From Deltaproteobacteria bacterium (GTDB taxonomy: Bacteria > Desulfobacterota > Binatia > HRBIN30 > JACQVA1), in contig JACOST010000028.1 of the NCBI GenBank assembly GCA_016178705.1, forward strand, positions 4,951-68,950: a stretch of 64,000 bases of DNA. Direction: 5' to 3'. The notes under the pieces were generated by a model that did not search any database, had not been told where the DNA came from, and worked only from the letters and a program-made list of their open reading frames with translations. The position numbers and the translations under genes are program-made. Positions 2,447 through 28,166 of this stretch are shown one piece after another (the first letter of the stretch is position 1; each line of letters begins with the position of its first letter).

Positions 2447-2535
2447 GCGTCGCCCTCCGGCGTGACGGCGCGGGGATAGGAAGGCGATGTGTGCGATGAC
2501 ACCGAATCGGAGGGCGACGCATGCGTCGCCCCTAC
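2432..2535. repeat. Inverted pair of GC-rich palindromic REP-like units (GTAGGGGCGACGCATGCGTCGCCCTCCG / its reverse complement)
   Basis: Seen in sequence. The same unit recurs at four other loci. Confidence 0.85.
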
Positions 2536-2556
2536 AAGGACGGGCGGTGGTGCGTA

Positions 2557-2949: not shown

Positions 2950-2960
2950 GCCCTCAGTGC

Positions 2961-4752: not shown

Positions 4753-4779
4753 GCGACGAGTGACCACGCGCGTCTTCAG

Positions 4780-4820
4780 ACAATCCGCAATCCCCAATCC
4801 GCAATCCGCAATCATCAATG
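4780..4820. repeat. AATCCGC heptamer array (about 5 units) at the actD/actE junction
   Basis: caatccgcaatccccaatccgcaatccgcaatcatcaatg. Confidence 0.8.
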
Positions 4821-5351: not shown

Positions 5352-6724
5352 AGCACGCCCTCCTTGACCTCAGCCTCGGGAACGAGCGTGCGCATTTCGA
5401 AGATCGAGATCATTGGCAAGAAGCGCAGGAACAAAAACAGCAAGCTGAGGAACAGTCCGATCGTACCGATGAACGTCGTCCAATCCCAGATCGTGCCGTG
5501 GTACATGCCCCACGACGACGGCAGGAAGTCGCGGTGCAAGCTGGTGACGACGATGATGAAGCGCTCGAGCCACATGCCGACATTGACGAACAGGCAGATG
5601 ACGAAGAGCAGCGGAACAGTGGCGCGCACTTTCCGGAACCACAGCAACTGCGGCACGACCACGTTGCACACCAGCAGCGACCAGTACATCTGCGCGTACG
5701 GACCGAAGAAGCGATTGGTGATCATGAACTGCTCGTAGGGGTTGGCGCTGTACCACGCCATGAAGGCTTCCATCATGTAGCCGTAGGCCACGATGAGGCC
5801 GGTGGCGAGCATGACCCTTCCCATGTAGTCGAGATGGCGTGCGGTGATGAAGTCTTCGAGGCCGTAGGCTTTGCGCAACGGGATCGCCAAGGTCATCACC
5901 ATCGCGAAACCCGCGTAGATCGCACCGGCGACGAAGTACGGCGGGAAAATCGTCGCGTGCCACCCCGGAGTCACACCGACGGCGAAGTCGAAGCTGACTA
6001 TCGTGTGCACCGACACCACCAGTGGCGTCGACAGGCCGGCGAGCAGCAGGTACGCCGTCTCGTAGCGATGCCAATGCGTCGCCGATCCGCGCCATCCCAT
6101 CGCCAGCATGCCGTAAATGAAGCGACCGGCGCGATTCGGCGACCGATCGCGCAACGTGGCGAGGTCGGGAATCAGACCAACGAACCAGAACATCAACGAC
6201 ACGATCGCGTACGTTGACACCGCGAACACGTCCCAAATCAGCGGGCTGCGAAACTGCGGCCACACGCCCATCGTGTTGGGGTAGGGGAGCAGCCAGTAGA
6301 ACAACCACGGCCGGCCGAGGTGGAGCAGCGGGAACATGCCGGCGCATGCAACCGCGAACAACGTCATCGCTTCCGCGAAGCGGTTGATCGAGGTGCGCCA
6401 CTCCTGACGCAGCAACAGTAGGATCGCCGAAATCAGTGTGCCGGCGTGGCCGATGCCGATCCACCACACGAAGTTGATGATGTCGAAGCCCCAGCCGACG
6501 GGGATGTTGACGCCCCAGATTCCGATGCCCTCGGTGAGCAGATAGGCCACCGAGTAAAGGAACAGCATCAGCAGGCTGAACGAGATGGCGAAGCCGACGA
6601 ACCACCAACGCGGCGTCTTCCCGGTCAACACCACCGCGCTGATCTTGTCGGTGACCGAGCCGAACGTATGCCCCGGCCCGATGATCGGGGCCGTCCGAGA
6701 TTCGGGCCGCGAGTCTTGGCTCAT
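5348..6724 (-). CDS. actC: Alternative complex III subunit ActC (NrfD/PsrC-like quinol-interacting membrane subunit)
   Basis: 458 aa, ~10 TM helices, NrfD-family signature regions. 4-bp overlap with actB. Confidence 0.85.
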   Translation of the reverse strand: MSQDSRPESRTAPIIGPGHTFGSVTDKISAVVLTGKTPRWWFVGFAISFSLLMLFLYSVAYLLTEGIGIWGVNIPVGWGFDIINFVWWIGIGHAGTLISAILLLLRQEWRTSINRFAEAMTLFAVACAGMFPLLHLGRPWLFYWLLPYPNTMGVWPQFRSPLIWDVFAVSTYAIVSLMFWFVGLIPDLATLRDRSPNRAGRFIYGMLAMGWRGSATHWHRYETAYLLLAGLSTPLVVSVHTIVSFDFAVGVTPGWHATIFPPYFVAGAIYAGFAMVMTLAIPLRKAYGLEDFITARHLDYMGRVMLATGLIVAYGYMMEAFMAWYSANPYEQFMITNRFFGPYAQMYWSLLVCNVVVPQLLWFRKVRATVPLLFVICLFVNVGMWLERFIIVVTSLHRDFLPSSWGMYHGTIWDWTTFIGTIGLFLSLLFLFLRFLPMISIFEMRTLVPEAEVKEGVL

Positions 6725-9700
6725 CCTCGATCCTCATCGCCGAGTTCCGGATTGGGATTGCGCAGGCGCGCCAAGTAGGTCGTGCGCGGGCGCGTGTTCA
6801 GCTCGCCGAGCAGCGAGTAGTTGCGCGCCTCGGCCTTGAGTTTGGCGACGCGGCTCTGCGGATCGTTGATGTTGCCGAACACGATGGCCTCGGCCGGGCA
6901 GACTTGCTGGCAGGCGGTGACGATTTCGCCGTCGCGGATGCTGCGGTCCTCTTTCTGCGCTTCGATGCGCGCAAAATTAATCCGCTGCACGCAATACGTA
7001 CACTTCTCCATCACGCCACGGGTGCGCACGGTGACATCCGGGTTTTCCGCCATCTTGAGGCTCTCGACAGTTTGGTTCGAGTACAAGAACCAGTTGAAGC
7101 GGCGCACTTTGTAGGGACAGTTGTTCGAGCAATACTTAGTCCCGACGCAGCGGTTGTAGACCATGTCATTGAGGCCTTCGCTGCTGTGCGTGGTGGCGCC
7201 GACCGGGCAGACGACTTCGCACGGCGCGTTCTCGCAATGCATGCACGGGACCGGTTGATGATAGGTCGTCGGGTTGTCGAGGTTGCCGGCGTAGTAGCGA
7301 TCGACGCGTATCCAATGCATCTCGTGCCCGCGCGCAACCTCGGTTTTGCCGACGATCGGAATGTTGTTCTCCGCCTGACACGCAATGGCGCAGGCGTTGC
7401 ATCCGGTACACGAGTTCAGATCGATCGCCATGCCCCACGCGTAGCTGTCGTACGGATGATCGTTCGGGTACAGCGTCATGTCCGCCGGCGGCGGCTCGGC
7501 TAATTCCCGGATGAAGTCGGGATGCGAGCGATACTCCTCGATGGCGCCGGCCAGAGCGAGGTGGCGGCCTTCCATGCTGTGGTGGTGCTGCGTGCAGGCG
7601 AGCGGATACGTCTCGCCGGTTTTGCGCAGCGTAGCGCCGCTCGCCGACCACGGGGCGTTGGCCGTACGAATCGTGTAAGCGTTGAAGCCGCTGCCGTTGC
7701 CGACCCGCCCGGCGCGGGTGCGGCCGTGTCCAAAATGAATCGTGATGGCATCGGCGACGTGGCCGGGCATGATCCAGATCGGCGCTCGCACGCTGCGGCC
7801 GGCGTAGCGCACTTCGACGAGATCTTCGCTGGCGAGCGCAAGCCGCTCGGCGGTGGCCGGCGCGATCAACGCGGCGTTGTCCCACGTCATGCGCGTCAGC
7901 GACTTGGGCAGTTCCTGCAACCAGCCGTTGTTGGCGAAGCGTCCGTCGAAGATGGTCGCGTCCGGCCGGAAGATGATTTCCAACGTGTCGTCCTTGGGAT
8001 TGCGTTCGACGCGGTCGCGCGCCTTGTCCCAGTCGGGTCGCAGCGACACGGACTTCGCGGGCAACGCGCTGCCGGCCACAACGCCGTTGTGCAGCGACTC
8101 GCGCCAGAAGCGCTCGAAGTCGAGCGCCGGGTGTTGGGTCTTCCAATGGTCGCGCACGATGTCGTGGCTGGTGCGATCAGGGTGGTCCGACATCGCGGCC
8201 AGCACTTCGTGCGCGGTCTTGCCGCCGTAGAGCGGGGCGATCAGCGGCTGCATGATCGTGATCGTGCCGTCATAGGCGCGCGCGTCGCTCCAAGATTCGA
8301 GGCAGTGCGCCTCGGGGATGTGCCAATGGCACAGCTCCGACGTCTCGTCGTTGTAGAGGCTGAGGTGAACGCTCAGCGGAACCTTGCTCAGCGCGGCGCC
8401 GAAGGCGATGTCGGCCGGCGCGTTGAACACCGGGTTGCCGCCGAGGATCATCAATGCCGCGACCTTGCCGGCATCCATGTCGGTCACCAATTCGCGCAGC
8501 GAATCGGTTTGCGGGACCACGGAGGCCGAGACCGGATCGGTATGAATCACCGTCTGTCCGTGGTTGCCGAGTGCGTGATTGACGACGTGCACGAGCGTGT
8601 GCACGATCGGCGGCTGCTCATCGCCGGCGATGACAATGCTGGTGCCGCGATGACGTTGCAGGTCGGCCACGATCGTCGCGGTCCAGCGTGGGTGAGCGCC
8701 GAGCCCGCCCGGTGTCTGCACTGGCACGCCCAAAGCCGCCGCGATCGAGCGTGCGAAGTCTTCGATCTCGCCCGGCCGTAGGGCAAGTCGATGATCCGCC
8801 ATCGCGCCGGTGTTCGACGGTGTGCTCTCGACCACGTAGAGCCGATTCATTTCGCTGCGCGGGTTTTGCACGCGGCGTTTGCCGCTGAAGTCGCGTACGT
8901 AGCGCACGTGCGCGGGACCGCATGAGAGGAAGTCCGCGTCGAGCGCGAGCACAACCTCCGCCTTGTCGAAGCGATACTGCGTCTCGACGTTCTCGCCGAA
9001 GGCGCGCCGGGCGCCGGCATACACCTGATCGCGGTTCGCGGGTTCGTACTGGTGCCACTTTGCGAGTGGAAACTCGGTGAGCAGCGCGCGAATCTGGCTG
9101 GCGAGCGTCGGCGAGGTGATCGTCTCAGTGAGCAGCCGCAACCCCGCGCCGCGTTGCTCACGCTGCGCTTCCAACGCGGTGCGCAGGCTGGCGAGCAGCG
9201 CACTCCACGGCCGAATGTCGCCGACGGTGGTAATCACTTGCGAACGATCGGGATCGTAGAGCGTCAACACCGCGGCCTGCGCGAAGGAGTCGGTGGCACC
9301 GAGGCTGGCGGGATGATCCGGGTTGCCCTCGACCTTGGTCGGGCGCCCCATGTGGCTTTCGACCAGCACGCCCGACGCGATGCCGCCGAGGGGAATCGCG
9401 GTGGCGAAGAAGAGCGGTCGACCCGGAACGATCTGCTCGGGCTGTCGGACGTACGGCACGATCTTCTCTTCCGGCTGGCGCGTGCACGCGTTCAAGCCGG
9501 CAAGCGCGAGCGACGCGCCCATCAGTTTCAAAAAGTCGCGCCGCTCGATCCCGTTGCCGCTCTCGCCGAAGGCAGCGCTGTGGCGCGGGAACTCGTTGTG
9601 CAGGAACCACTCGAAGTCGTCGGTCTCGGCCAGCTCTTCGAGGCTGCGCCAGTATTGCTTCCCGGTGGCGTTGGCGAGCTTGCGCCGGATGGCGGCGAGA

Positions 9701-9768
9701 TCGACACGCTTCTTCATCGGTTCGCTGTCGCGCAGTCGTTCCGGTTGTGTGGTCAACTTCTCGTCCAT
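6721..9768 (-). CDS. actB: Alternative complex III subunit ActB: fused molybdopterin-oxidoreductase-like domain plus 4Fe-4S ferredoxin domain, Tat-exported
   Basis: Twin-arginine signal RRDFLKLMGASLALAG. C-terminal Cys clusters CTGCNACAIAC and CMHCENAPCEVVCP. Confidence 0.9.
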   Translation of the reverse strand: MDEKLTTQPERLRDSEPMKKRVDLAAIRRKLANATGKQYWRSLEELAETDDFEWFLHNEFPRHSAAFGESGNGIERRDFLKLMGASLALAGLNACTRQPEEKIVPYVRQPEQIVPGRPLFFATAIPLGGIASGVLVESHMGRPTKVEGNPDHPASLGATDSFAQAAVLTLYDPDRSQVITTVGDIRPWSALLASLRTALEAQREQRGAGLRLLTETITSPTLASQIRALLTEFPLAKWHQYEPANRDQVYAGARRAFGENVETQYRFDKAEVVLALDADFLSCGPAHVRYVRDFSGKRRVQNPRSEMNRLYVVESTPSNTGAMADHRLALRPGEIEDFARSIAAALGVPVQTPGGLGAHPRWTATIVADLQRHRGTSIVIAGDEQPPIVHTLVHVVNHALGNHGQTVIHTDPVSASVVPQTDSLRELVTDMDAGKVAALMILGGNPVFNAPADIAFGAALSKVPLSVHLSLYNDETSELCHWHIPEAHCLESWSDARAYDGTITIMQPLIAPLYGGKTAHEVLAAMSDHPDRTSHDIVRDHWKTQHPALDFERFWRESLHNGVVAGSALPAKSVSLRPDWDKARDRVERNPKDDTLEIIFRPDATIFDGRFANNGWLQELPKSLTRMTWDNAALIAPATAERLALASEDLVEVRYAGRSVRAPIWIMPGHVADAITIHFGHGRTRAGRVGNGSGFNAYTIRTANAPWSASGATLRKTGETYPLACTQHHHSMEGRHLALAGAIEEYRSHPDFIRELAEPPPADMTLYPNDHPYDSYAWGMAIDLNSCTGCNACAIACQAENNIPIVGKTEVARGHEMHWIRVDRYYAGNLDNPTTYHQPVPCMHCENAPCEVVCPVGATTHSSEGLNDMVYNRCVGTKYCSNNCPYKVRRFNWFLYSNQTVESLKMAENPDVTVRTRGVMEKCTYCVQRINFARIEAQKEDRSIRDGEIVTACQQVCPAEAIVFGNINDPQSRVAKLKAEARNYSLLGELNTRPRTTYLARLRNPNPELGDEDRG

Positions 9769-9778
9769 TGAGTGTCGC

Positions 9779-10435
9779 TCAGCGATGACACGTCGAGCAA
9801 TTGGTCAGATGCGCGACTTCGATGTTGTAGGTCTTGAGCAACGCGAGCCCCTGCGTGATCTGGTCACTCGGCGGCTGCCAGTTCATGTCAAACACGTGCT
9901 CGCGCGGTCGCAGGTATTGTTCCGGATGGCGATGGCAGTCGAGGCACCACTCCATCTGCAGCGAGGTGGCTTGCCAGGTGAGGTTCATGCGATCGATGCG
10001 CCCGTGGCACGAGCCACAGCCGATGCCCTTCTGCACGTGAATGCTGTGATTGAAGTAGACGAAGTCGGGCAGGTCGTAGACCTTGGTCCACTGGATCGAC
10101 CGGTCGGTGCGAAAACTCGCGCGCACCGGTTCGAGCATCGGGCTGTCGACCCAGATTTGGGCGTGGCAGTTCATGCAGGTTTTCGTCGGCGGCACGCCGG
10201 CGTACGCGGTTCGTTCGACGGCGGTGTGGCAGTAACGGCAATCGATCCCGAGCTCGCCGGCATGATGGCGATGGCTGAACGGAATCGGTTGCTCGCGCGC
10301 GACCCCCGCCCGGGTGACGTAGCCCGAACGATTGATGAGCGCCAAGCCCCACAAACCACCGGCGATGACGAAGGCCGCCCCGAAGATGCTCAACCGCGAG
10401 AAGGTATTCGTACTCGGATGGAAGACCTGCGGCAT
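9779..10435 (-). CDS. actA: Alternative complex III subunit ActA, pentaheme cytochrome c
   Basis: Five CxxCH motifs (CRYCH, CMNCH, CGSCH, CLDCH, CSTCH). N-terminal TM anchor. Confidence 0.9.
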   Translation of the reverse strand: MPQVFHPSTNTFSRLSIFGAAFVIAGGLWGLALINRSGYVTRAGVAREQPIPFSHRHHAGELGIDCRYCHTAVERTAYAGVPPTKTCMNCHAQIWVDSPMLEPVRASFRTDRSIQWTKVYDLPDFVYFNHSIHVQKGIGCGSCHGRIDRMNLTWQATSLQMEWCLDCHRHPEQYLRPREHVFDMNWQPPSDQITQGLALLKTYNIEVAHLTNCSTCHR

Positions 10436-17744: not shown

Positions 17745-19304
17745 TCAGTTCAGGTCGAAGTCTGTCAGGCCATTGGTTCCCGGCACACCGGCGGGCGACG
17801 ACGCATCCGCTTTGGCGATGATGATCCCGCCGAAGAAACCCTGAAAGGGGAGCGCTCCATAGTACGCGAGTTGCTGGCCGTCGTGGCTGTACGCCGCCAT
17901 GCTGTTGGGCAGGATGATGGTGCCCGGCTGCGGGGTCTCGCCCGATCCATTGGGGTTGATGAACCAGATAAGCTGTCCCGTCGGCCGAGTGGACTGGAAC
18001 GCGATGCGCTGACCGTCCGCGCGCAACACCGGGAACTCATCGCGGAAGCTGTTGTTGGTCACGCGGGTGATGTTGGTTCCGTCGGGATTCATCAGATAGA
18101 TCTCCAGGTCCTCGGCCTTTGAGTCGTGCGCGATGTGGAGGGTCGAGGCGAACACGATGCGATTGCCAACCCAATGCGGCGAGTTAAATCGCTCGCCCGC
18201 GTCCGGCAGGATCGTCGTCGAGCCCGACCCGTCGGCGTTGATGACCTTGATCCGACCACGCCCCACGCCGTCGACAAAGACGATGCGATTGCCGTCAGGA
18301 CTCCACGACGGCTGTCCCACGTCGGACTCGTCCGGCGTCAGGTCGGCGCGTCCGGAGCCATCGGCGTTCATGGCAGAGATATGGTAGCGCAAGCCGCCGT
18401 TTTGGTCGCGCACACTTGCCGACCAGACGATGCGCATCCCGTTGGGACTCCATTCCGGATCGCGGTCGAACGCATCGGTGGTGTTGGTGAGATTGACCTT
18501 CCCCGATCCGTCGGTGTTGAGCAGCACGATATCGTTGACCAAGCCCGCATCGGGAGCGGCGCACACGAGGCGCTGGCCGCCCACAGTGCCGGTGGTCGGG
18601 GTGCGAGTTGGCGACGGTGTCGGCGTTGGGCTGGAATTGCTCACCGGTGTCGTAGGCGTGGCAGTGGCAGGCAGACGGGAATGCGTCGGCGTCGGCGTGC
18701 TGCCGTCCCCGGCCGCCACGGTTCCAGAAAAGGGCTGGCCGTTGATCGATATCATCAAGCTGCCACCACCCCCACCCAGGCCTGGCAATGTGCCGCTGAT
18801 GCTCACGTCGATGGTCCCGCCGTTGCCGTCGGGAATACTGCCGGTGACCGTGAAGACGCCGGTGTCCAAGTTGACGTCGCCGGTGATCGGACCGGAGGCG
18901 ATCACGGCCGACGCGCCGCCGAAGAAACCGGCCGCTGCCGCGTCGCGAATAGCGAACGTCCCGGTGACGCCTCCCGTACCGCCCACAGTCAGCGTCGCGG
19001 TGGCGCGGCGCCCATCGTTGAGCATTGCGGCGCCGAAGAACTGGCCAGTGAACGGACAGCTGTTTAGGGCGTTGTTCACGGCGACAATCAGCTCTTCAAC
19101 AGTCACTTCATTGTCGTGACCGGCATCGAACGACGGACACTGCTGCAGCGCCGTTGTGCCGAGCGCGATGTTGACGCCCAGCACCAACTCCTCGACGGTG
19201 ACCGCTCCATCGCTGCTGCAGTCGCCGTCGCATGCGCCCGAGGCCCAGGCACTCGGCTGCGCCAACGACATCGCCAGTATCACCGCAACAATCAGCTTCA
19301 ACAT
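17745..19304 (-). CDS. Secreted multidomain protein. It has a signal peptide, a pair of dockerin/EF-hand-like Ca-binding repeats, a Gly-rich beta domain, a Thr/Pro linker and a TolB-like PD40 beta-propeller
   Basis: Signal peptide MLKLIVAVILAMSLA. Two DGDCSSDGAVTVEEL / DAGHDNEVTVEEL repeats. PTPTPSPTRTPTT linker. Repeated DPEWSPNGMRIV / QPSWSPDGNRIV PD40 blades. Strong RBS GGAGGAGG. Confidence 0.8.
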   Translation of the reverse strand: MLKLIVAVILAMSLAQPSAWASGACDGDCSSDGAVTVEELVLGVNIALGTTALQQCPSFDAGHDNEVTVEELIVAVNNALNSCPFTGQFFGAAMLNDGRRATATLTVGGTGGVTGTFAIRDAAAAGFFGGASAVIASGPITGDVNLDTGVFTVTGSIPDGNGGTIDVSISGTLPGLGGGGGSLMISINGQPFSGTVAAGDGSTPTPTHSRLPATATPTTPVSNSSPTPTPSPTRTPTTGTVGGQRLVCAAPDAGLVNDIVLLNTDGSGKVNLTNTTDAFDRDPEWSPNGMRIVWSASVRDQNGGLRYHISAMNADGSGRADLTPDESDVGQPSWSPDGNRIVFVDGVGRGRIKVINADGSGSTTILPDAGERFNSPHWVGNRIVFASTLHIAHDSKAEDLEIYLMNPDGTNITRVTNNSFRDEFPVLRADGQRIAFQSTRPTGQLIWFINPNGSGETPQPGTIILPNSMAAYSHDGQQLAYYGALPFQGFFGGIIIAKADASSPAGVPGTNGLTDFDLN

Positions 19305-19371
19305 CGCTGTTCCTCCTCCGCCCGTATCGGTCAGATCAATGGCTTCCGATGCAGAAGGCGTTCAAAGCGAC

Positions 19372-19397
19372 TGAACAGTGTTCAGTGGCGGGTGAAC
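19372..19397. promoter_or_regulatory. Candidate operator: palindrome TGAACAGTGTTCA plus a downstream GTGAAC half-site, ~70 bp upstream of the start of 17745..19304
   Basis: Seen in sequence. Paralogous arrangement to 24197..24223. Confidence 0.55.
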
Positions 19398-19413: not shown

Positions 19414-22400
19414 TCAGAACTGCCAGCGGATCGGCAACCGCGGATCGGGGCGGTAGCTGCAGTAGGTCCCGGTCTTGATGGTGGTGGCGAGGTAGCGCCC
19501 AAGGTGGGCATCGCCGTCGCTGATGCGCTTGATCGTGGTCTTGATGGCGCGGGTCACGTTCACCCGCGCACGTTCGGCATCGGCGGCGCGTGCGGAGCCG
19601 CGGTTACCCAAGCCTGCGCCGGCCGCCAGTTGGTCGGCGAACATCTCGATCTCTTCGCGCAGTTTGCTCGCGCGCCCGAGGTCGTTAAATCGAGTCGCCT
19701 CGTCCAATTGGTCGCGCAGGTCTTCGATGCGCTGCTTGTCGGTGGTGCGTGCGCGCCCTTCGATTGCTGTCGCTGATGCCGTCGCCGGCGCCGCTAAATC
19801 AGTGGCGTGGAACTCGCGGCCGGGATGCTGCAGCAGTTGGCTGAGACAGCGCAGCCCCTTGGAATCCTTGAGGCGCAACAGAGTCGCGCCGCTACCGACG
19901 CTCCAGTACTGTCCCTCGAAGTGAAAGAGGCCGCGCACGCTGTCGAGTTGGTTGTCCTTCGCAGGTGACTGCTGGTGGTCAGAACCCGCGTGCGGCTCGG
20001 GTTGCCTGCGTTTGCTCTGCGGGCTGATCGTCCGAGCGGAACGCACGAGCCGGAGGCCTCCGCTCGCCGCCGCAACCGGGATCGGCTCTTCCAGTTCAGC
20101 GACAGCATGATCGCCCTCGGTGCGTACATCCAAGGTGCGCAGCTGCATCGCGAGGCTGACCATGCCGAGCGCTTCCGCTGTCGCGAGTGCGTGCGCCGCC
20201 AGGTCGCGCGCGCGCAGATGATCGCCGACGCGGCCGCGCGTCAACAGCGCGCAAGTGTAGGCGTACTGCGTGCGAGCGAGCCATGGTGGGCCGTCCATGC
20301 GGGCGTTGCGCGCCAATGCATCCTCGAAGTGCCGCGCCGCATCGTCCCATCGTGCCATCGTCGCCGCGAGGATGCCGAGATAGTGAGTCGCGGCACCGAA
20401 GCTGACGCTGGCCGCGTAGGCAATGGTGCTATCGACGTAGGGGAGCAACAGATCGTACAAGATGGCCGCGCGTCGATTATCGCGCAGGTATGCGCAGACT
20501 TCGGACAAGTACGGCAACACGCCCAGACGGCGTTCGCGCTGGAGATCGGCAAACTCGTGGTGCGCGACCTGTTCGAACTCGTAGCGGGCTTCCGCCTCCT
20601 GGTCCAACTCGCGGTGGACAAGTGCGAGAAATGTGCGCGGCACAGGGCTGAAGGGATAGCGTTCGACGAACACGTGGAGCATCGGCAACTGTCCTTCCAG
20701 TTGGCGGAGCTCGCGCTGTGCCACGAATGCTTGCACGAGGGGGTTGAGCCGAATCTCGGCGCGCTCGGCGAGCGGCGTGGCTTCCTGCGCGAGGGCGATG
20801 GCCTCGGTCCACTGTCCGCGCCACAGCGCTCGCATTGCGCGCAGGTTCGCGCCCATCCAGCGGTAGCGCGAACGACCCAACGCGGCGGCGAGCGGAGGAT
20901 AGGTTGCCAGCTCGGCGTCCAAACGATCGCCGTCACCGCCGTTCATCAGATCGATCAGGCGCCACATGCGCCCTTGGATCGCCAGCTCGCGGTCGCCGAG
21001 GCGATCGCCGAGTTGCGTAATCTCGTCGGCGATGGTGAGCCGGTCGGCGAGGTAGTCCGACCGCCACAGCACGAAGTGCTGCGCACTCAGCACGTGCGCC
21101 AGCGTCACCGGGTCGGCAAGCTCGCGCGCCATCGCCAGCGCGTGTCCAACCAAGGTGATGCCGCGCTCTCGATCGGAGACCGCCAGTTCCGCTGCCAAGC
21201 GCGCCAGCAAGCGGGCGCGCACAGCGGTCGGATCGCTGCCGAGGCCGGCGAGCGCTTCTTCGATCAGGGCCGCGACGGTGGGATCGGCGATGGATTGCGG
21301 CGCGCCGACCCCGCGGTCGGCGAAGCCGAGGGCGGCGCGCGCGAGCAGCGCCGGCGCCGCTAGGCGTCGAGCGATGGTGGCGGCGTGCGCAAACGTCGCG
21401 CGCGCGTCTTGATCGCGCCCACTGCCGAGTTGCGCTTCGCCGAGTCCGAGGAGCACCTCGCACCCCGCGGCATCCGTTTGGGTGTCGGTGAGGGCGAGCG
21501 CTTCGAGGGCGCGCTCGAACTGAATGGCGGCCTCTTCGTACGCGAACAGCGCGGCGGCGCGCTCCCCGGCGCGCACCGCGTAGCTGATGGCCTGGTGCGG
21601 ATCGCCGAGCGGTGTCGCGTGGAGAAAATGGTGCGCGATCTCGGCGTAGTGGGGTGCGAGATCGGCTGCGTCGAGTCGCTCCAAAATCTCCGCGACCTGT
21701 TGATGCATGCGGGCACGTTCACTCGGCGACAGATCACTGTACAACGTCTCGCGGATCAGCGTGTGCTGGAAGCTGTACCGCGACGATGCTCCGGGGAGCG
21801 TGGTGACGATGGCATTCGTGGACGCCTCGCCCAACAGATCGAGGAGCTGCGCCGCCGGTCGTTCGCACATCGCTAGCAGTGGTGCGAAGTCGAACTCTCG
21901 CCCGAGTACTGCGGCGATGTTGAGAACACGACGGCAGGCCGGTGAGAGTGGGCGCAAGCGCTGGCGGATCGCGTCGCCGACACCGTGCGGAATGGGCAAT
22001 CCATCGGGCGGGATCTCGGACAACCGAGCGGCGTGTTGCACGACCAATGTGCGCACCACTTCGTCGATGAAGAGCGGATTGCCTTCCGTTGTCTGATGCA
22101 CGGCTGCGACCACCGCGCGCGATGGCGCCAGCGCGAAGCCAGCCGTAATGAAGCGCGCGACATCATCGGCCGACAAGCCGCCGAGCGGCACGCGATGTCC
22201 TTCGCGGGCAATCGCCGCCAGCGTCTGCGCACACTCCGGGCGCGACGGCATCTCGATGTCGCGATACGTCCCGGCGATCAGCAGGTGCGCATCGCGCAGC
22301 TCGCGGGCGATGAACTGGAGCAGCAGGAGCGACGGTTGATCGGACGCGTGGAGGTCGTCGAGGATGAGCACAAGTGGACGCGCCGCGCCCGCACGCTTGA

Positions 22401-22926
22401 GCAGCCCACCGACGGCGCCGAACTGAGCGAAGCGCGCGTGTTCGGACGATAGCGCGGGTGGTGTCGGCGCCGGAAGATCCGGTTGCCACTCGATCAACTC
22501 GGGCACCAATTGCGCGATCAGCCCGGCCGTATCGCCGAGCAATTCGGTGCGCGCGGCGGGACCACGATCCCGCAGCACAGCGCGAATGATCTGCACCCAC
22601 GGCCAGTATGCGGGCGCTCCGCCACCTTCCCAACAGCGGCCCCAGAGAACCTGCGCGCCGCGCCGGGCGGCTTCGGCGGTCAGTTCCTCCGCGAGTCGCG
22701 TCTTGCCGATGCCGGGCTCGCCGGCGATGAGGAACACCCGCCCGCGCCCTGCCGCGGCATCGGCCAGTCCGGAGTAGAGTTCAGTGAGTTCGCGCTCGCG
22801 GCCAACAAACGATCGCGCCGTGAGCCGATGGAGCGCCTGGTTTGATTCGTTTTCCACCGGTTGTCCCGCGGCGTGCACTACTCTCGCCGCGGTCGCCTGT
22901 GTAGGTGCGGCGGCCGGGTTGGTCAA
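19414..22926 (-). CDS. Large AAA(AAA_16-like)-TPR regulator with an uncharacterised conserved C-terminal domain (paralog 1)
   Basis: Walker A LIAGEPGIGKTRLAEEL. Walker B LVLILDDLH. Long TPR/helical region. C-terminal ~200 aa (FEGQYWSVGSGATLLRLKDSKGLRCLSQLLQHPGREFHATDL...TTIKTGTYCSY) matches no domain I recognise, but is conserved in the downstream paralog. Confidence 0.8.
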   Translation of the reverse strand: MTNPAAAPTQATAARVVHAAGQPVENESNQALHRLTARSFVGRERELTELYSGLADAAAGRGRVFLIAGEPGIGKTRLAEELTAEAARRGAQVLWGRCWEGGGAPAYWPWVQIIRAVLRDRGPAARTELLGDTAGLIAQLVPELIEWQPDLPAPTPPALSSEHARFAQFGAVGGLLKRAGAARPLVLILDDLHASDQPSLLLLQFIARELRDAHLLIAGTYRDIEMPSRPECAQTLAAIAREGHRVPLGGLSADDVARFITAGFALAPSRAVVAAVHQTTEGNPLFIDEVVRTLVVQHAARLSEIPPDGLPIPHGVGDAIRQRLRPLSPACRRVLNIAAVLGREFDFAPLLAMCERPAAQLLDLLGEASTNAIVTTLPGASSRYSFQHTLIRETLYSDLSPSERARMHQQVAEILERLDAADLAPHYAEIAHHFLHATPLGDPHQAISYAVRAGERAAALFAYEEAAIQFERALEALALTDTQTDAAGCEVLLGLGEAQLGSGRDQDARATFAHAATIARRLAAPALLARAALGFADRGVGAPQSIADPTVAALIEEALAGLGSDPTAVRARLLARLAAELAVSDRERGITLVGHALAMARELADPVTLAHVLSAQHFVLWRSDYLADRLTIADEITQLGDRLGDRELAIQGRMWRLIDLMNGGDGDRLDAELATYPPLAAALGRSRYRWMGANLRAMRALWRGQWTEAIALAQEATPLAERAEIRLNPLVQAFVAQRELRQLEGQLPMLHVFVERYPFSPVPRTFLALVHRELDQEAEARYEFEQVAHHEFADLQRERRLGVLPYLSEVCAYLRDNRRAAILYDLLLPYVDSTIAYAASVSFGAATHYLGILAATMARWDDAARHFEDALARNARMDGPPWLARTQYAYTCALLTRGRVGDHLRARDLAAHALATAEALGMVSLAMQLRTLDVRTEGDHAVAELEEPIPVAAASGGLRLVRSARTISPQSKRRQPEPHAGSDHQQSPAKDNQLDSVRGLFHFEGQYWSVGSGATLLRLKDSKGLRCLSQLLQHPGREFHATDLAAPATASATAIEGRARTTDKQRIEDLRDQLDEATRFNDLGRASKLREEIEMFADQLAAGAGLGNRGSARAADAERARVNVTRAIKTTIKRISDGDAHLGRYLATTIKTGTYCSYRPDPRLPIRWQF

Positions 22927-22972
22927 GAGACGCGAGTAGCAACAAGGAAGCGGGCAGGCGTAAACGAGAAGA

Positions 22973-22998
22973 GTCGGCCCGCCTTGCGGCGGGCCGAC
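22973..22998 (-). terminator. Putative intrinsic terminator downstream of the second dockerin-like gene
   Basis: Perfect hairpin gtcggcccgcc-ttgc-ggcgggccgac. On the minus strand it is followed by TCTTCTCGTTT. A second GC hairpin lies at 23006-23040. Confidence 0.45.
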
Positions 22999-23056
22999 CG
23001 GTTCGCGGCTCGGCGCACTTCGGGAGAGCGCGCCGAGCCGTGAATAGGAAGATTCG

Positions 23057-24160
23057 TCAGTCCTTCGTCAAAGCGATCGCGAGCGCCAGCGGATGAAAGG
23101 GATCGCTGAACGAAACCTTTGAATACTGGCCGGCCAGACCGCCGGGGAAGAGCGAGTTCATAGTGAGGTTCTCGTTCGAGCTCCCGCCCGTCTTGTTGTA
23201 GAAAAATGCCCGCGGGCTCGCCACGGTTGCAATCACCGATGCGGTCGAAAGGAGATTCTTCTTGAGATCGGTGATCTTCAACTGCCCGCTGACCACTTCA
23301 ACTTTGATCTGCACTTGCCGATGATCGTTGGTCAGGTCGTTGTCGGCGTGACCGCTCCACGTACCGATCAAGTCGGCCGCGATACCGGGCGGATTGATGA
23401 GGCCGGTGGTCGGCGTCGCCGTCTGCGTCGGCAGATTGGTGTGCGTCGGGACCGGAGTGTTGGTCGGTATCAGTGACGTTGGCGTGATGGTCGGCGTCGG
23501 TGTTTGCGTCGCCGTCGGCGGGTGTGTTCGCGTCGGCGTAGGAGTGCTGCCGTCGCCGGTGACGATCGAACCCGTGAACACGGTACCGTCCAGGTTGACG
23601 CTGAGTGACCCGCCGCCGTGGAGACCGGGGAACGTACCGCCGAGATGGACGTTGTGAGTGCCGTCGCCGTCGGTGAAGCTGCCGTCGATGCTAAACGTGC
23701 CATTGTCGAGGTCGACCGAGCCGCTCAGCGACACGATCGCGATCACTGCGGCCGCGTTGCCCTGATCGAAGAGCGACGCCGACGCGGCTGAACGGATCGT
23801 CATGGTGCCGGTGACTTGGCCGTTGCCTTGTGCGACCAGATTGATGATGCCGGTCTGGCCATTGGCGAGCGCGACGGTACCGTAGAACTGGCCGGTGAAC
23901 GGACACGTCCCCAAGGCGTTGTTGACGGCGAGCACTAGCTCTTCAACTGTGACAGACTGGTCGTTGTTACTGTCGAATTGGTTGCACTGGGTGACCAAGA
24001 TGCTGCCGAGAGCGATGTTGACGCCCTGCACCAGCTCTTCGACCGTGACGACTCCGTCACTGTTGCAATCCCCATCGCATCCGGCGGCCAGCGCGCGTGG
24101 GCCGGTTGCTGCCAGTCCCAGCGCGGCCAATACGATCAACGTCCCGAATCGCTTGATCAT
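23057..24160 (-). CDS. Secreted protein with an N-terminal dockerin/EF-hand-like repeat pair, a Gly-rich beta domain, a Thr/Pro linker and a different ~130-aa C-terminal domain (paralogous N-terminal half to 17745..19304)
   Basis: Signal peptide MIKRFGTLIVLAALGLAATG. CDGDCNSDGVVTVEEL and DSNNDQSVTVEEL repeats. TPTPTRTHPPTATQTPTPT linker. RBS GGGGAGGA. Confidence 0.75.
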   Translation of the reverse strand: MIKRFGTLIVLAALGLAATGPRALAAGCDGDCNSDGVVTVEELVQGVNIALGSILVTQCNQFDSNNDQSVTVEELVLAVNNALGTCPFTGQFYGTVALANGQTGIINLVAQGNGQVTGTMTIRSAASASLFDQGNAAAVIAIVSLSGSVDLDNGTFSIDGSFTDGDGTHNVHLGGTFPGLHGGGSLSVNLDGTVFTGSIVTGDGSTPTPTRTHPPTATQTPTPTITPTSLIPTNTPVPTHTNLPTQTATPTTGLINPPGIAADLIGTWSGHADNDLTNDHRQVQIKVEVVSGQLKITDLKKNLLSTASVIATVASPRAFFYNKTGGSSNENLTMNSLFPGGLAGQYSKVSFSDPFHPLALAIALTKD

Positions 24161-24196
24161 GATGATCCTCCCCAGTCGGGGGGGCGTAACAAATCG

Positions 24197-24223
24197 TTGA
24201 ACAGTGTTCAATTCGGTTGAACG
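24197..24223. promoter_or_regulatory. Candidate operator: perfect palindrome TTGAACAGTGTTCAA plus a downstream TTGAAC half-site, ~40 bp upstream of the start of 23057..24160
   Basis: Seen in sequence. Near-identical to the site at 19372..19397. Confidence 0.55.
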
Positions 24224-24310
24224 AATGAAAATTTTGGCTTGTAGGTGTGCAATCATCGCTCGCCATCTCGTGGCTTGCACAAGAAGAATTGAGCGATCTC
24301 CCCGCTCGTC

Positions 24311-24378
24311 ATTCCGGCGAAAGCCGGAATCCAGGCACGGACCCCACGCGTCGCCTGGATACCGGCCTTCGCCGGTAT
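24311..24378 (-). terminator. Two tandem hairpins downstream of regulator paralog 2
   Basis: attccggcgaaagccggaat at 24311-24330 and ataccggccttcgccggtat at 24359-24378. Confidence 0.35.
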
Positions 24379-24434: not shown

Positions 24435-27400
24435 CTACAAGCGCCAGCTCTTCGGCCAACGTGGATCGGGTGTGTAGGAACAGAACGTGCCGGTCTTGAT
24501 GGTGGTGCTGAGATGCCGGCCCAACGCTGAATCGCCGTCGGCAATTCGTTTCAGCACCGCTTTGATGGCGCGGGTGACGTTGACGCGAGCGCGTTCGGTT
24601 GCCGATGGCCCGCTGCGTGTACGACCGTGCAGACCAACCGCCCGCGCGAGTTCGCGCGTCAGAAACTCGATCTCGTTTTGTGTGCTGGTAATCCGCCCGA
24701 GGTCGTTGAAGCGGGTGGCTTCTTCCAACTCTGCGCGAAGACTTTGCAACTGGCGCTTGTATGCCGCCCGTGCTTGCGGGTCCAGCAGTGCCCCAAGGTC
24801 GCCGAGATTGCCGGCGCGCAACCCGAGTTGTTGCCGTTGCTCGTCGCTGAGTTGGTCGATCTGCGCCGCGGCGGGAGTCACACTGTCGGGCTTGTGAGCG
24901 ATCAAGTCGAGCGCATGAAATTCCCGGCTTGGGTGGCGCAAGAGATGTGCGATGTAGCGCAGACCCTTGGTGTCCTTGAGGCGGAGTGGGGCCATCCCTT
25001 CGCCGACGGTCCAGAACTCCCCTTCCAGACGAAAGCTGCACTCGGCAGTCGTAGCGCCGGTGGTCGCCGGGGAATGCTGCGGTGGAGCCGCGGTGATGGC
25101 TCGCCCGCGGTGTTTCGCCGGGAAACTCAGCACGCGGCCGCGAGTGGAAGCGCCCGACGGCTCCGCATCGTGCAGCGCGGAGGCATCGCCGCTGGCGAGC
25201 GCGCGGGTGATCGGTTCGCGCTGCTGCGCCGATGACGGCTCCAGACGCGCTACGTCGGCCAATGCTTGCGCGCGCTCGGCGAGCGGCGTCATCCCCAACT
25301 CGCGCGCGGTGTCGTGGGCGTGCTGCAACAGATCGCGCGCGTGTTCGCGGGAATTCGCGGCACGGAGCGCGGGCCCCGCATCCACTAGCATGCGAGCGTA
25401 GGCGTACTCGGTGGCGGCCACCGCCGGCCGGCCTCCGGCGGCTAGACTGCGCGCGCGCGCATCTTCGAAGTGTTTCGCGGCCTCATCCCATCTCTCCAAG
25501 GTTGTGGCCAGGAGACCGAGGGCGTGGAAGCCCGGGCCGAAGCAGTGCCGCGGACCGAACGAGATGAAGCGCGAACCAAACCGGAACAGTCGCTCATACA
25601 GCAGGGCCGCCGCGTGGCGATCGCCGAAGTGCGCGCACAGCTCCGCCAACCACGGCAGCATCGGTAGGAGCGCGTTGGTGCGCACGAGATCGACGAAGTC
25701 GTCGGCCGCCAGGCGACCGTACTCGGCCCGGGCCTCGGCGTCGTGTCCCTGGTCGATCTGTATCAACGCCAGCGCGCAGCGGATGATCGGCACGTGCGGC
25801 ATCTGTTCGACCCCGCGCCGCGCGATCATTTCCGCGACCTCGTACTGGCCGAGCGCCCGCTTCGCCACGTAGGCCTGAAAGCCGACGCTGCCCAGCGCAG
25901 TGTCGTCGCGCACCCGCTCGGCGAGTGCGCCAATCTCTTGGCCAAGCGCGTCGCTTTCGGCGAAGCGCCCGAGCCACAGGGCACGCATCGCTCGCAGCAT
26001 GATGGTGTTGCTGAGGTAGCGGGGTTGGCGCAGCTCGTCGGCGAGTCGACTGCACGCGTCGAGTTCGCGTTCCCACTCGCCGCCACCCACTCCCATCTCA
26101 ATGACGTCGAGCAACCGCCAGGTGTGCGCTTGCAGTGCAAGCTCACGATCGTCGGCACTCTCGGCGAGCTGAATGCCCTCGTTGGCGAGGCTGAGCCGCT
26201 CGTCGACGTCGGGCGAATCCCACAGCGCGAAATGGCGCGCATTGACGGCGTAGGCCAAAGCCGCCGACTGGCCGCAGCGGCGCGCCATCTCGACCGCTTG
26301 CCGGCTCAGTGCGGCGCGCCGCTCCTCGGCGTCCGAGAAGTACAGTTCGGCCGCCAGCCGCGCCAGTATCCGTGCGCGCAGAGGATGGTCGTGCTCGGCC
26401 AACCGCACCAGCGCTTCTTCGAGCGCGGCCACCAGAACCGGGTCGACGACTCCACCGCGCGGCAGTCCGTGACCGATGCCGCCGAGCGCGAGCACCGCCC
26501 GCGCGAACGAGTCGGACGCATTCGCGTACCGTGCGCGCTCTGCCGCACGCAGAAACGTCTCCCGCGCCTCGCTGGTGTGCCAGGCGCGCGCCTGCGCGTT
26601 GCCCAACGCCAGCAGCAGCTCGAACTCCCGCTGGGGGTCTGGGGCCCCGAGGACGAGGGCGTCGAGAGTGCGTGTGTAGTGCGCTGCCGCGTCTTCGTAC
26701 GCCAACAAGTCCGCCGCGCGGCGCCCGGCGCGCTCACCGTAGGTGATGGCCTTGGTCAGGTCGCCGGCGGGCGCGGCCTGGAGAAAATGATGGGCGAGCT
26801 CGGCGACATGGGCGTCGGGGTCGGTGGCCGACAGCGTCTCCAACACCTCGCCGATGCGTTGGTGCAAACTCAAACGTTGTGCCGCCGGCAGATCGTCGTA
26901 CACGGTCTGCCGAATCAGCATGTGCGTAAAACTGTACCGAGTGGTGATCCCCGGTAGCTTGGTGACGATGCCCGCGGTGATCGCTTCGCTGAGGATGTCG
27001 AGGACGTCGGGTGCGGGCAGCTCGGACACCCGTTGCAGCGTCAGCAGATCGAAGTCGCGACCGATCACCGCGGCTATGCTCACCACGCGCTGACAGGTCG
27101 CCGACAGCGGTCGCAGCCGCTCGTGCGTGACTTCACGAATCCCGGCTGGAATCCTCAGGCGCTCCGCGGTCGCATCAGCGAGTGTCAGGTCGCGTCCTTC
27201 TGCCAGCAGCCAGCGCACGACTTCATCGACGAAAAATGGATTGCCGTCAGTGGTGCGGTGCAGGGTCGTGATGACCGCGGGCGGTGGCGCGATCACAAAC
27301 GTGCGTTGAATAAAATGAGCGACGTCGGGTTCGGGCCAGCCGCTGAGTGGTAGGCGGTGGCCGTTGCGGGCCACGTCGCTCAGCAGGCGCGCGCACTCAG

Positions 27401-28166
27401 GTTGACGTCGCACCTCGACCTCACGGTAGGTGCCGATCAGCAGCACTCGCGCGCTGCGCAGTTCCCGTGCGGCGAACTGCAGCAACAACAGCGACGGGTC
27501 ATCGGCCGCGTGCAGATCGTCGAGCAGGATCACGAGCGGCTGGTCCACTGCCACCCGCTGCAGGAACGTGGTCGTCGCATCGAACAACGGAAAGCGGGCC
27601 TGTTCGGACTCGATCGTCGACGCCTGCGATCCGGCCGGAATGCCGGCCACGCGCTGTCGCAGGTCGGGCACCAGGGACGCGATGCACGACGCCCCGCCGC
27701 CGAGATGGTGCGCAAGTGCGTGTGGATCACGGTCGCGGATCAACGCGCGCAGGATCTGGATCCACGGCCAAAAGGCCGGCGCGCCGCCGCCTTCCCAACA
27801 CCGGCCCCACAGCACCTGCGCGCCACCGGCGCTCGCCGTTGCGGCGAGTTCTTCCGCCAGCCGCGTCTTGCCGATGCCCGGCTCGCCGACGATGAGGAAG
27901 ACGCGGCCGCGCCCGTTCAGCGCGTCGTCGAGTCCGGTGCGTAGCTCTGTCAGCTCGCGGTCGCGGCCGACGAAGGCGCGCGTGCCCGGGCGATCGGGGT
28001 CGGCGCTGGTGGTTGTCTGCCGAGGGTCACTCACGTGGGGTTGGTTAGTACGTGATCGGACGCATACGTCAAGAGACGAATGCCCGAGTCGCCGACAATC
28101 GCGGACGCGCTGTCCGTGGTTTCGCTTTCGGCGGGCTCGCGCTAGGGATGCGAGCCACAGTGCCAC
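24435..28166 (-). CDS. Large AAA(AAA_16-like)-TPR regulator with the same uncharacterised C-terminal domain (paralog 2). The true start may be the in-frame GTG at ~28034
   Basis: LIVGEPGIGKTRLAEEL, LVILLDDLH and TPR region are collinear with paralog 1. The C-terminal FRLEGEFWTVGEGMAPLRLKDTKGLRYIAHLLRHPSREFHALDL...TTIKTGTFCSY matches paralog 1. Confidence 0.8.
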   Translation of the reverse strand: MALWLASLARARRKRNHGQRVRDCRRLGHSSLDVCVRSRTNQPHVSDPRQTTTSADPDRPGTRAFVGRDRELTELRTGLDDALNGRGRVFLIVGEPGIGKTRLAEELAATASAGGAQVLWGRCWEGGGAPAFWPWIQILRALIRDRDPHALAHHLGGGASCIASLVPDLRQRVAGIPAGSQASTIESEQARFPLFDATTTFLQRVAVDQPLVILLDDLHAADDPSLLLLQFAARELRSARVLLIGTYREVEVRRQPECARLLSDVARNGHRLPLSGWPEPDVAHFIQRTFVIAPPPAVITTLHRTTDGNPFFVDEVVRWLLAEGRDLTLADATAERLRIPAGIREVTHERLRPLSATCQRVVSIAAVIGRDFDLLTLQRVSELPAPDVLDILSEAITAGIVTKLPGITTRYSFTHMLIRQTVYDDLPAAQRLSLHQRIGEVLETLSATDPDAHVAELAHHFLQAAPAGDLTKAITYGERAGRRAADLLAYEDAAAHYTRTLDALVLGAPDPQREFELLLALGNAQARAWHTSEARETFLRAAERARYANASDSFARAVLALGGIGHGLPRGGVVDPVLVAALEEALVRLAEHDHPLRARILARLAAELYFSDAEERRAALSRQAVEMARRCGQSAALAYAVNARHFALWDSPDVDERLSLANEGIQLAESADDRELALQAHTWRLLDVIEMGVGGGEWERELDACSRLADELRQPRYLSNTIMLRAMRALWLGRFAESDALGQEIGALAERVRDDTALGSVGFQAYVAKRALGQYEVAEMIARRGVEQMPHVPIIRCALALIQIDQGHDAEARAEYGRLAADDFVDLVRTNALLPMLPWLAELCAHFGDRHAAALLYERLFRFGSRFISFGPRHCFGPGFHALGLLATTLERWDEAAKHFEDARARSLAAGGRPAVAATEYAYARMLVDAGPALRAANSREHARDLLQHAHDTARELGMTPLAERAQALADVARLEPSSAQQREPITRALASGDASALHDAEPSGASTRGRVLSFPAKHRGRAITAAPPQHSPATTGATTAECSFRLEGEFWTVGEGMAPLRLKDTKGLRYIAHLLRHPSREFHALDLIAHKPDSVTPAAAQIDQLSDEQRQQLGLRAGNLGDLGALLDPQARAAYKRQLQSLRAELEEATRFNDLGRITSTQNEIEFLTRELARAVGLHGRTRSGPSATERARVNVTRAIKAVLKRIADGDSALGRHLSTTIKTGTFCSYTPDPRWPKSWRL

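Follow-up and report, generated by a model that had tools for sequence, protein, structure and literature searches.

The window, as we call the whole 64,000-nucleotide (64-kb) stretch of DNA that was analyzed, contains two paralogous two-gene cassettes on the minus strand, R2 followed by D2 and R1 followed by D1. The genes, the C-terminal domains of the R proteins and the hairpins next to the D genes are the following:

19414..22926, minus strand: R1, a STAND-type ATPase with an AAA_16 domain, TPR-like helical repeats and a C-terminal DNA-binding-like domain
19414..19941, minus strand: C-terminal domain of R1 (175 amino acids), a predicted OmpR/PhoB-like winged helix split by a helical hairpin
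17745..19304, minus strand: D1, putative target gene of site 1, encoding a secreted protein that combines two dockerin/EF-hand-like repeats with a shared middle region and a terminal PD40 (TolB-like) propeller
24435..28166, minus strand: R2, a paralogue of R1 (45% identity); the real start is likely a GTG at ~28032
24435..25031, minus strand: C-terminal domain of R2 (198 amino acids), same predicted fold as the R1 domain
23057..24160, minus strand: D2, putative target gene of site 2, encoding a secreted protein paralogous to D1 (48% identity across the N-terminal 250 amino acids)
24291..24307, minus strand: terminator-like hairpin between the R2 stop codon and the site 2 block
22972..22999, minus strand: strong terminator-like hairpin after D2, with 12 pairs, 10 of them G-C, followed by a T tract

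Both R1, the true start of which probably lies later than 22926, and R2 match the AAA_16 family PF13191 (E = 1.9e-26 and 1.1e-25, respectively) and contain the Walker A motif GEPGIGKT, as expected of STAND NTPases. Matches to TPR_12 and TPR_2 are weak and were obtained for R1 only (3e-5, below the Pfam cut-off), and a resemblance to the middle region of TIGR03903 likewise scores below the cut-off of that model. As in STAND regulators, the effector domain, here predicted to bind DNA, is part of the same polypeptide. Pfam EF-hand matches were obtained for D2 only and are below threshold. The strong hairpin at 22972..22999 divides the two cassettes, and the hairpin at 24291..24307, which comes from a consensus scan with the same count as in shuffled sequence, suggests that D2 needs its own promoter.

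The original prediction placed a conserved palindrome upstream of both dockerin-like genes, and this is borne out. TGAACAGTGTTCA occurs exactly twice in the 64-kb window (19372-19384 and 24198-24210, plus strand), the chance expectation for an exact 13-mer of such composition being ~0.0002 per strand, and a search of the 64 kb that tolerated up to two mismatches found no further match. The details differ from those predicted. The core at both sites is spaced as GAAC-N3-GTTC, in an odd palindrome TGAACA-N1-TGTTCA, rather than as GAAC-N4-GTTC, and placement is not identical, with the end of the palindrome 67 nt from the ATG at site 1 and 37 nt from it at site 2. The extra TGAAC half-site described for both copies is indeed present (19393-19397 and 24218-24222, plus strand), but it is separated from the palindrome by 8 nt (site 1) or 7 nt (site 2); moreover, because the four genes around the sites are all encoded on the minus strand, it lies distal to the palindrome, i.e., upstream, in gene sense. 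A conserved element on the gene-proximal side, 7 nt from the palindrome, had been overlooked.

The palindrome is the left part of a directional 28-bp block, which in gene sense reads TGAACAnTGTTCA-N5-TT-(T/C)GAACGCC in the window and has the consensus TGAACA-N1-TGTTCA, N7, (T/C/G)(G/T)(A/T)ACGCC. The two sites are composed as follows:

19357..19384, minus strand: site 1 block, gene sense TGAACACTGTTCA GTCGCTT TGAACGCC, ending 52 nt before the ATG at 19304
19372..19384, strandless: site 1 central palindrome TGAACA-N1-TGTTCA, from sequence reading and a mismatch scan
19393..19397, minus strand: site 1 distal half-site GTTCA, 8 nt upstream of the palindrome and 16 nt past the R1 stop codon
19357..19364, minus strand: site 1 proximal element TGAACGCC (GGCGTTCA on the plus strand)
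24183..24210, minus strand: site 2 block, gene sense TGAACACTGTTCA ACGATTT GTTACGCC, ending 22 nt before the ATG at 24160
24198..24210, strandless: site 2 central palindrome, from sequence reading and a mismatch scan
24218..24222, minus strand: site 2 distal half-site GTTCA, 7 nt upstream of the palindrome
24183..24190, minus strand: site 2 proximal element GTTACGCC (GGCGTAAC on the plus strand)

Sites next to a regulator gene carry the additional distal GTTCA 7-8 nt upstream of the palindrome. Up to four half-sites of alternating orientation are therefore present, with centers 12, 8, and 12 bp apart and a spacing of 20 bp between copies on the same strand. The interval from the regulator stop codon to the next start codon contains three to four half-sites, an arrangement kept in orthologous loci, where regulator-adjacent sites have a GTTC(A/G/C)-N7 half-site at the same place as the distal GTTCA of site 1. 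The ACGCC of the proximal element keeps a constant distance of 10 nt from the palindrome in the different phyla, and the GTTACGCC variant of this element recurs in L066 and L119, two of the loci described below. The R-to-D intergenic regions (109 and 274 nt) can be aligned across the block alone, as GTTCA-N7/8-TGAACACTGTTCA-N7-(TGA/GTT)ACGCC. Scored with a position weight matrix (PWM) trained solely on independent metagenome blocks, the site 1 block reaches 46.1 bits and the site 2 block 31.8 bits, the maximum in shuffled sequence being 14.1 bits. Altogether, the comparative evidence supports that the block is a shared cis-regulatory element, in line with the shared operator proposed originally. 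The extra length of the site 2 intergenic region is due to an inserted REP-like inverted pair. Based on sequence reading and the PWM scan, no block is located upstream of R1 or R2; autoregulation of these genes through the block was rejected for this reason. The regions upstream of R1 and R2 have another 11-mer in common, CGTCTCTTGAC, which is followed by TAC(T/A)(A/C)A after 16-17 nt.

Outside the window, a metagenome scan using the pattern TGAACANTGTTCANNNNNTTNNNACGCC, which has 19 specified bases and includes the ACGCC arm, matched 31 contigs, of which 28 clearly belong to one family (21 unique blocks). The match in three near-identical AT-rich marine contigs (L100, L105, and L106) lies inside a coding region and was taken as chance. 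Conservation extends to positions that were free in the pattern: positions 20-22 read TGA in 15 of the 21 unique sites (P ~5e-26), and C at position 15 and G at position 16 occur in 19 and 15 of them, respectively. In every one of the 28 contigs, the block is oriented toward a gene that lies downstream of it and has a Shine-Dalgarno sequence. The distance between ACGCC and the start codon is at least 22 nt and reaches ~140 nt; it is shortest at site 2 and in L090 (22 nt), in L113 and L119 (24 nt), and in L104 (26 nt). The R C-terminal domain is encoded directly upstream on the same strand in 7 of the 28 contigs, and a D-like gene lies downstream in about a dozen. Many block-bearing promoters lack an R gene within 2-5 kb (L093, L096, L097, L103, and L115), and the genes downstream of the block in R-less contigs encode a globin, a legume-lectin-domain protein, a DUF2510 membrane protein, 59-amino-acid proteins, and other secreted proteins. 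Because these contigs have the block before varied genes, the element appears to mark a regulon of which the regulator-adjacent genes are only a part. Accordingly, of the two outcomes envisaged originally, i.e., a regulon or only the two genes in the window, the scan points to the former, with a membership that is not confined to dockerin-like or regulator-adjacent promoters. Using this pattern with its ACGCC arm, we found no SOS gene (lexA, recA, uvrA, dinB, imuA/B) among the ~30 block-linked genes, and the 64-kb window contains neither lexA nor recA.

A search for homologues of the D proteins gave 14 matches, which cover the dockerin-like repeats only, and five D-homologue contexts without an R gene (L001-L006) lack the motif. 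Because D homologues are few and covered in their repeats only, conservation was traced through the regulator, in a genome scan with an alignment of R1 and R2 that identified 79 loci. The palindrome lies 25-72 nt past the regulator stop codon in the closest orthologues, i.e., L007/L008 (53% identity), L014 (58%; Binatia), and L010 (47%). The next gene after the block is a D2 orthologue in L014, and D2 orthologues are also found downstream of the block in L101 and L116; in L007, the next gene encodes a D2-like lipoprotein without dockerin repeats. Among close homologues of the C-terminal domain, L117 and L119 have the block 135-147 nt past the stop codon and L118 has none. The same architecture with one extra central base, GTTCA-N7-TGAACAttTGTTCA-N7-TGAACGCA, is present in Litorilinea (Chloroflexota, L048) after the R homologue and before a DoxX gene. 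Two loci of Actinomycetota (L074 and L078) have GG(A/C)ACAgtTGTTCC-N7-TTCACGCC ~20-25 nt past the stop codon of the R homologue, and similar composites are located 110-330 nt upstream of the R homologue in L046 and L058. L066 has a full array, GTTCA-N5-TGTTCA-N7-TGAACAccAGTTCC-N7-GTTACGCC, and this array lies ~45 nt upstream of the gene for a 205-amino-acid stand-alone protein that is essentially the R C-terminal domain only.

The PWM scores of these loci far exceed the maximum of 14.1 bits in shuffled sequence. Overall, the block was detected in 6-10 of the 32 loci that have a domain-bearing homologue vs none of the 46 that have a domain-less homologue (Fisher p = 0.0035 to 5e-5). Based on these comparisons, the block appears to track domain-encoding genes in Binatia, Chloroflexota, and Actinomycetota. 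A lack of conservation at orthologous promoters had been named as an observation that would speak against a shared operator; instead, the block is kept beside orthologous regulator genes. No block is found near the R homologues of L009, L016, and L019 despite the same recognition helix. Because there are block-bearing promoters without an R gene as well as R homologues without a block, adjacency of R gene and block is frequent and not obligatory.

The C-terminal region of the R proteins (~175-200 amino acids) has no sequence match in Pfam, NCBIfam, or PDB. A search with the domain retrieved 1302 protein clusters, and the domain is thus a widespread module: it occurs alone, at the N or C terminus of AAA_16 ATPases, or fused to receiver, glyoxalase, SDR, or zinc-ribbon domains, a fusion pattern expected of the output domain of a regulator. 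In the databases, these proteins are mostly named "hypothetical protein" or "ATP-binding protein", and none of the names says DNA-binding regulator. Two independent AlphaFold models, of the R1 domain (pLDDT 86) and of the R2 domain (pLDDT 77), have the same topology, with a three-stranded sheet, alpha1, a strand, alpha2, an insertion, a long helix, a short helix, and a beta-hairpin. These elements include those of the OmpR/PhoB fold, i.e., the N-terminal beta-sheet, alpha1, beta, alpha2, the recognition helix alpha3, and the beta-hairpin wing. The domain, therefore, models as a winged helix of the OmpR/PhoB type, with membership at the level of the fold only: there is no match to Pfam Trans_reg_C (PF00486) at E <= 10, whether the insertion is present or removed; hhalign of the domain against six OmpR-type domains gave a weak result (P = 0.033); the domain profile gave only spurious armadillo-repeat matches in PDB; and Foldseek of the domain against PDB gave nothing significant. 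The insertion of ~70-95 amino acids, which consists of a disordered linker and a long helical hairpin, precedes the recognition helix, and we consider the hairpin a candidate dimerization element. Every locus with TGAACA-type sites has a putative recognition helix of the form ERAR-x-NVTRA(I/V)(K/R), and the helix contains SVTK or TVTK in the three loci with half-sites of the type GG(A/C)ACA...TGT(T/G)CC; this anecdotal covariation of helix and half-site is in the expected direction.

Based on these findings, we suggest that the block is most likely the own DNA target of this family of large-ATPase regulators and not an SOS box. Specifically, we consider it probable that the C-terminal domains of R1 and R2 recognize the block as an array at the promoter and that the downstream gene is switched on. 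The adjacent regulator had been put forward as the binder from the outset, and comparative evidence leaves it the best candidate, through its C-terminal domain. Starting from the anatomy and conservation of the block, its association with the domain, and the fold of the domain, we infer physical binding, oligomerization, and regulatory sign as follows. A signal would drive ATP-dependent oligomerization of R, as in MalT, AfsR, and the LAL regulators; several DNA-binding domains of the R oligomer would then occupy the half-site array; and transcription of the immediately downstream gene, in the window D1 and D2, would be switched on.

The surroundings of the block give some indication of how it might act. 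A scan of 17600-28400 found no sigma-70 consensus promoter, and by eye there is no consistent TAnnnT at a fixed distance past the block. The characterized STAND/LAL/SARP and PhoB-type regulators are nearly all or mostly activators. Because of the lack of a sigma-70 consensus, the very poor match of nACGCC to a -10 element, and this predominance of activators among STAND, SARP, and PhoB-type regulators, we modestly favor activation over repression. The minimum of 22 nt between ACGCC and the start codon leaves space for a transcript start and a Shine-Dalgarno sequence only; accordingly, the transcript would start ~6-7 nt past ACGCC, or further upstream, and with this spacing the block would occupy roughly the -35 to -10 interval. 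The proximal TTGAAC was rejected as a -35 element, for which it fails at the five sites with ACGCC 22-26 nt from the ATG, as was a sigma-54 promoter, the GG and GC dinucleotides of which are absent. In Actinomycetota, the proximal element TTCACGCC bears no resemblance to a repeated copy of the half-site, and it may therefore be that a factor other than the R domain reads ACGCC. Going further, we tentatively propose, and regard as possible rather than probable, that the module represents a large, hitherto unannotated family of one-component output domains that bind DNA, and that the block is a self-contained regulator-dependent promoter, at which the bound oligomer would supply recognition of the -35 region and of the unusual ACGCC "-10" region.

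The R-family domain could also bind the block as a repressor and occlude a weak sigma-70-type promoter until a signal relieves repression. In this case, the -35 element would be the left palindrome arm, (T)TGAAC, and the -10 element nACGCC, 17 nt downstream. The geometry TTGAAC-N17-(T/A/C)ACGCC fits the spacing of -35 and -10 elements, the base preceding the palindrome is most often T (12 of 21), the putative -10 element always has A as its second base, and the shortest ACGCC-ATG distances (22-26 nt at site 2 and in L090, L104, L113, and L119) suit the transcript start. Palindromes over the -35 element and the spacer are typical repressor sites. Nevertheless, we regard repression as unlikely: nACGCC lacks the final T and is a very poor -10 element, and repressors normally act on intrinsically active promoters; ACGCC is kept across three phyla beyond the expectation for a degenerate -10 element; and characterized STAND/LAL/SARP regulators are nearly all activators (AfsR, PMC6988585). 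A more distant option, and in our view quite an improbable one, is that a different factor reads the block, either an ECF-type sigma factor or an unrelated dimeric regulator, with the R genes being mere neighbors or co-members. The promoter-like length and fixed orientation of the block, the many blocks without a nearby R gene, and an ECF sigma gene within the window (34712..35335) agree with this option, and TGAAC is similar to the "AAC" of ECF -35 elements. ECF promoters combine this "AAC" with a "CGT(C)" -10 element at a usual spacing of 16-17 nt, and their spacer is not conserved. In the block, by contrast, the right arm TGTTCA would be spacer and yet is invariant, the left-arm AAC is 19 nt from the CG of ACGCC, and there is no CGT(C) -10 motif; an ECF-sigma promoter was rejected on this spacing and on the invariant TGTTCA. 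Moreover, no block is located upstream of the ECF gene of the window (PWM scan). Against any different factor, the only feature common to loci of three phyla is the gene for the R C-terminal domain, including its stand-alone form, and the block is absent beside domain-less homologues.

The two remaining explanations are far less credible. The block could be an RNA-level element (an intercistronic hairpin, attenuator, or terminator), a leftover of duplication, or a mobile repeat. GUUCA-N7-UGAAC can form 5-bp hairpins, the site 1 region folds with z = -2.0, and the cassettes are paralogous. However, three other orthologous regions fold no better than shuffled sequences (z = -0.03, -0.7, and -0.07), the structure is different at each region, there is no U tract, and the arms are conserved in sequence with no covariation. 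Likewise, the flanks outside the block are unrelated, contrary to a mobile repeat, and the R and D paralogues are only 45-48% identical, with intergenic regions that align solely at a block that recurs in unrelated genomes and metagenomes, contrary to a leftover of duplication. We therefore consider all of these variants highly improbable. The SOS box offered as an alternative in the original prediction fares even worse. The Cheo box, i.e., the LexA SOS operator, is CGAAC-N4-GTTCG, and the block does contain the letters GAAC and GTTC; also, the Litorilinea variant TGAACATTTGTTCA does show N4. However, the spacing is N3 in the window and at all Binatia sites, with N4 restricted to the variants of Chloroflexota and Actinomycetota; the ~30 downstream genes are for secreted/dockerin-like, globin, lectin-domain, DoxX, DUF2510, and small proteins rather than SOS functions; the ACGCC arm makes the element asymmetric and gives it a direction; and the element tracks the R gene across phyla. 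Recognition by LexA thus has almost no likelihood in our estimation.

Recognition of the block by the R domain as an activator would place the family beside several known systems. AfsR and the large SARPs of Streptomyces combine an OmpR-type DNA-binding domain, a BTAD, an NB-ARC/STAND ATPase, and TPRs. Like AfsR, R joins a STAND ATPase, TPR-like repeats, and a predicted OmpR-fold winged helix in one polypeptide, is presumed to be an activator, and is associated with short GTTCA-containing repeats over the core promoter of a neighboring or dedicated target gene. The OmpR-family protein PhoP recognizes GTTCACC units (PHO boxes), which are also the target of AfsR at the afsS promoter (PMC6988585). 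In contrast to AfsR and the SARPs, the DNA-binding-like domain of R is C-terminal, not N-terminal, and R1 and R2 have no BTAD match and, therefore, do not qualify as SARPs. Also, the R winged helix has the insertion of ~70-95 amino acids and is invisible to Pfam Trans_reg_C, its half-sites alternate (centers 12/8/12 bp apart) whereas AfsR targets are 11-bp direct repeats, and members of the R family come from Binatia, Chloroflexota, Actinomycetota, and Acidobacteria-like metagenome sequences.

MalT and the LAL regulators are signal-dependent STAND ATPases that act at short sites of mixed orientation, at activator-dependent promoters without a good -35 element. R resembles them in being a STAND ATPase with a C-terminal, predicted DNA-binding domain; it differs in its recognition sequence and in an effector that models as an OmpR-like winged helix, not a LuxR/GerE helix-turn-helix. 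With the response regulators of the OmpR/PhoB family (PhoB, PhoP, and GlnR), R shares hexamer half-sites of the TGTTCA/GTTCA type and sites that overlap or replace the -35 element. Unlike these proteins, R1 and R2 have no receiver domain (some members of the R family have one; P0074, PF00072), the sites are inverted and not direct repeats with the 10-11 bp tandem spacing, and the domain has the inserted helical hairpin and no sequence-level membership. Finally, the Cheo/LexA operator has similar GAAC and GTTC arms, but the block is distinguished by its N3 spacing, its directional extra elements, the absence of SOS genes, and its linkage to a STAND regulator. A literature search on the motif, STAND-OmpR fusions, and Binatia regulators found nothing specific, and neither the R family nor its motif has a Pfam or NCBIfam annotation.

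Altogether, our findings carry the AfsR/MalT theme over to a novel arrangement of domains and to new phyla, and they overturn no principle. They propose a function for a Pfam-less C-terminal module, together with a concrete candidate for its cognate DNA sequence, and the 28-bp DNA and the ~200-amino-acid domain make up a compact, testable pair. The system also lends itself to asking how an OmpR-fold domain split by a hairpin reads alternating half-sites and how the STAND ATPase couples to the signal. If the block were indeed a self-contained promoter dependent on the regulator, this would be an architecture not described for OmpR-type or STAND regulators, and the block would control a secreted-protein regulon in uncultured soil Binatia. 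For this uncultured soil phylum, the block would provide the first cis-regulatory code, from which a regulon may be predicted by sequence that includes dockerin-like secreted, lectin-domain, globin, DoxX, and DUF1326-like proteins.

The genes for R1 and R2, the paralogous STAND-type ATPase regulators, are preceded by an identical 11-mer:
22922..22932 and 28068..28078, minus strand: CGTCTCTTGAC, 5' of R1 and R2, respectively

In both cases, the 11-mer is followed 16-17 nt later by TACACA or TACTAA, ahead of the regulator gene. Based on the sequence, these two elements could form a sigma-70-like promoter (TTGAC...TAC) common to R1 and R2, or they could represent a second common operator. According to the promoter reading, R2 transcripts would be near-leaderless if translation starts at the GTG at ~28032. 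The intergenic region between R2 and its dockerin-like gene D2 also contains a REP/MITE-like repeat:
24311..24335, plus strand, and 24354..24378, minus strand: 25-mer ATTCCGGCGAAAGCCGGAATCCAGG, inverted pair

This pair is confined to the R2-D2 intergenic region, with no further copy in the 64-kb window, and its insertion explains why the spacer is 274 nt long compared with 109 nt at site 1, the operator-like block ahead of D1.

Three other features of the window were noted:
44666..49147, minus strand: third large STAND-type protein, 1493 aa
34712..35335, plus strand: ECF sigma factor gene
558..10435, minus strand: cytochrome gene cluster

The 1493-aa protein combines a double zinc ribbon and a Ser/Thr kinase with AAA_16 and adenylate/guanylate cyclase domains. 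A C-terminal domain of the R type is missing, and its neighborhood lacks the block. The TGAACA-type block is absent upstream of the ECF sigma factor gene. The cytochrome cluster encodes a COX2-like cupredoxin/cytochrome c fusion together with a cbb3-type cytochrome c; its other products are an NrfD-like membrane subunit, an Fe-S subunit of 1015 aa, and a multiheme cytochrome. Its gene content resembles that of an alternative complex III beside an oxidase.

In other loci, a G+C-rich inverted repeat (e.g., GGCCGACGAGCAGGTCGCCGGCC) is conserved among the related sites L093, L102, L107, L111, and L112; it lies ~10-35 nt 3' of the ACGCC that ends the block, in the putative 5' UTR of secreted-protein genes. 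Some contigs contain two tandem blocks, each ahead of one of successive genes, as on contig L104:
L104, 1721: second block TGAACACTGTTCAacctgttTGAACGTC, 3' of the D-like gene

A degenerate second copy, which we inferred from the out-of-frame translation 'EALNIVHPIRTP', is located ~200 nt past the first block in L090, L094, L098, and L099. The tandem blocks suggest arrays of regulated genes. The block at a Thermoleophilaceae locus is preceded by two additional TGAAC copies:
L021, about 9268..9330, minus strand: block TGAACGGTGTTCG-N7-TTCACGCC

The additional copies form a direct repeat with 11-12 nt spacing that resembles the PHO boxes of Streptomyces; the locus may have an array that is more elaborate, or its block may overlap PhoP sites. 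The 19-base pattern derived from the block also matched three near-identical marine contigs (L100, L105, and L106). These contigs are AT rich, and the match spans the start of a ~900-aa ORF, itself downstream of a 566-aa ORF; we regard the matches as chance and unrelated to the family.

The ~200-aa R-type domain also occurs in other arrangements, as in proteins P0016, P0031, P0074, P0086, P0088, P0096, and P0115: it is found at the N terminus of AAA_16 ATPases, and its other fusion partners are receiver (PF00072), SDR, alpha/beta-hydrolase-like, zinc-ribbon, and glyoxalase domains; stand-alone proteins of 200-340 aa are numerous. A large subgroup of these domains differs in its recognition helix, ERARQSITKTIK. 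The R-like protein of a Binatia locus has the recognition helix TVTK. This locus contains two copies of a block-like element:
L026, 1161 and 1886: GGCACAATTGTGCC-N7-TTTTCACACC

Both copies score under the threshold of the block matrix but have the same architecture as the block; they may represent a specificity variant of the operator.
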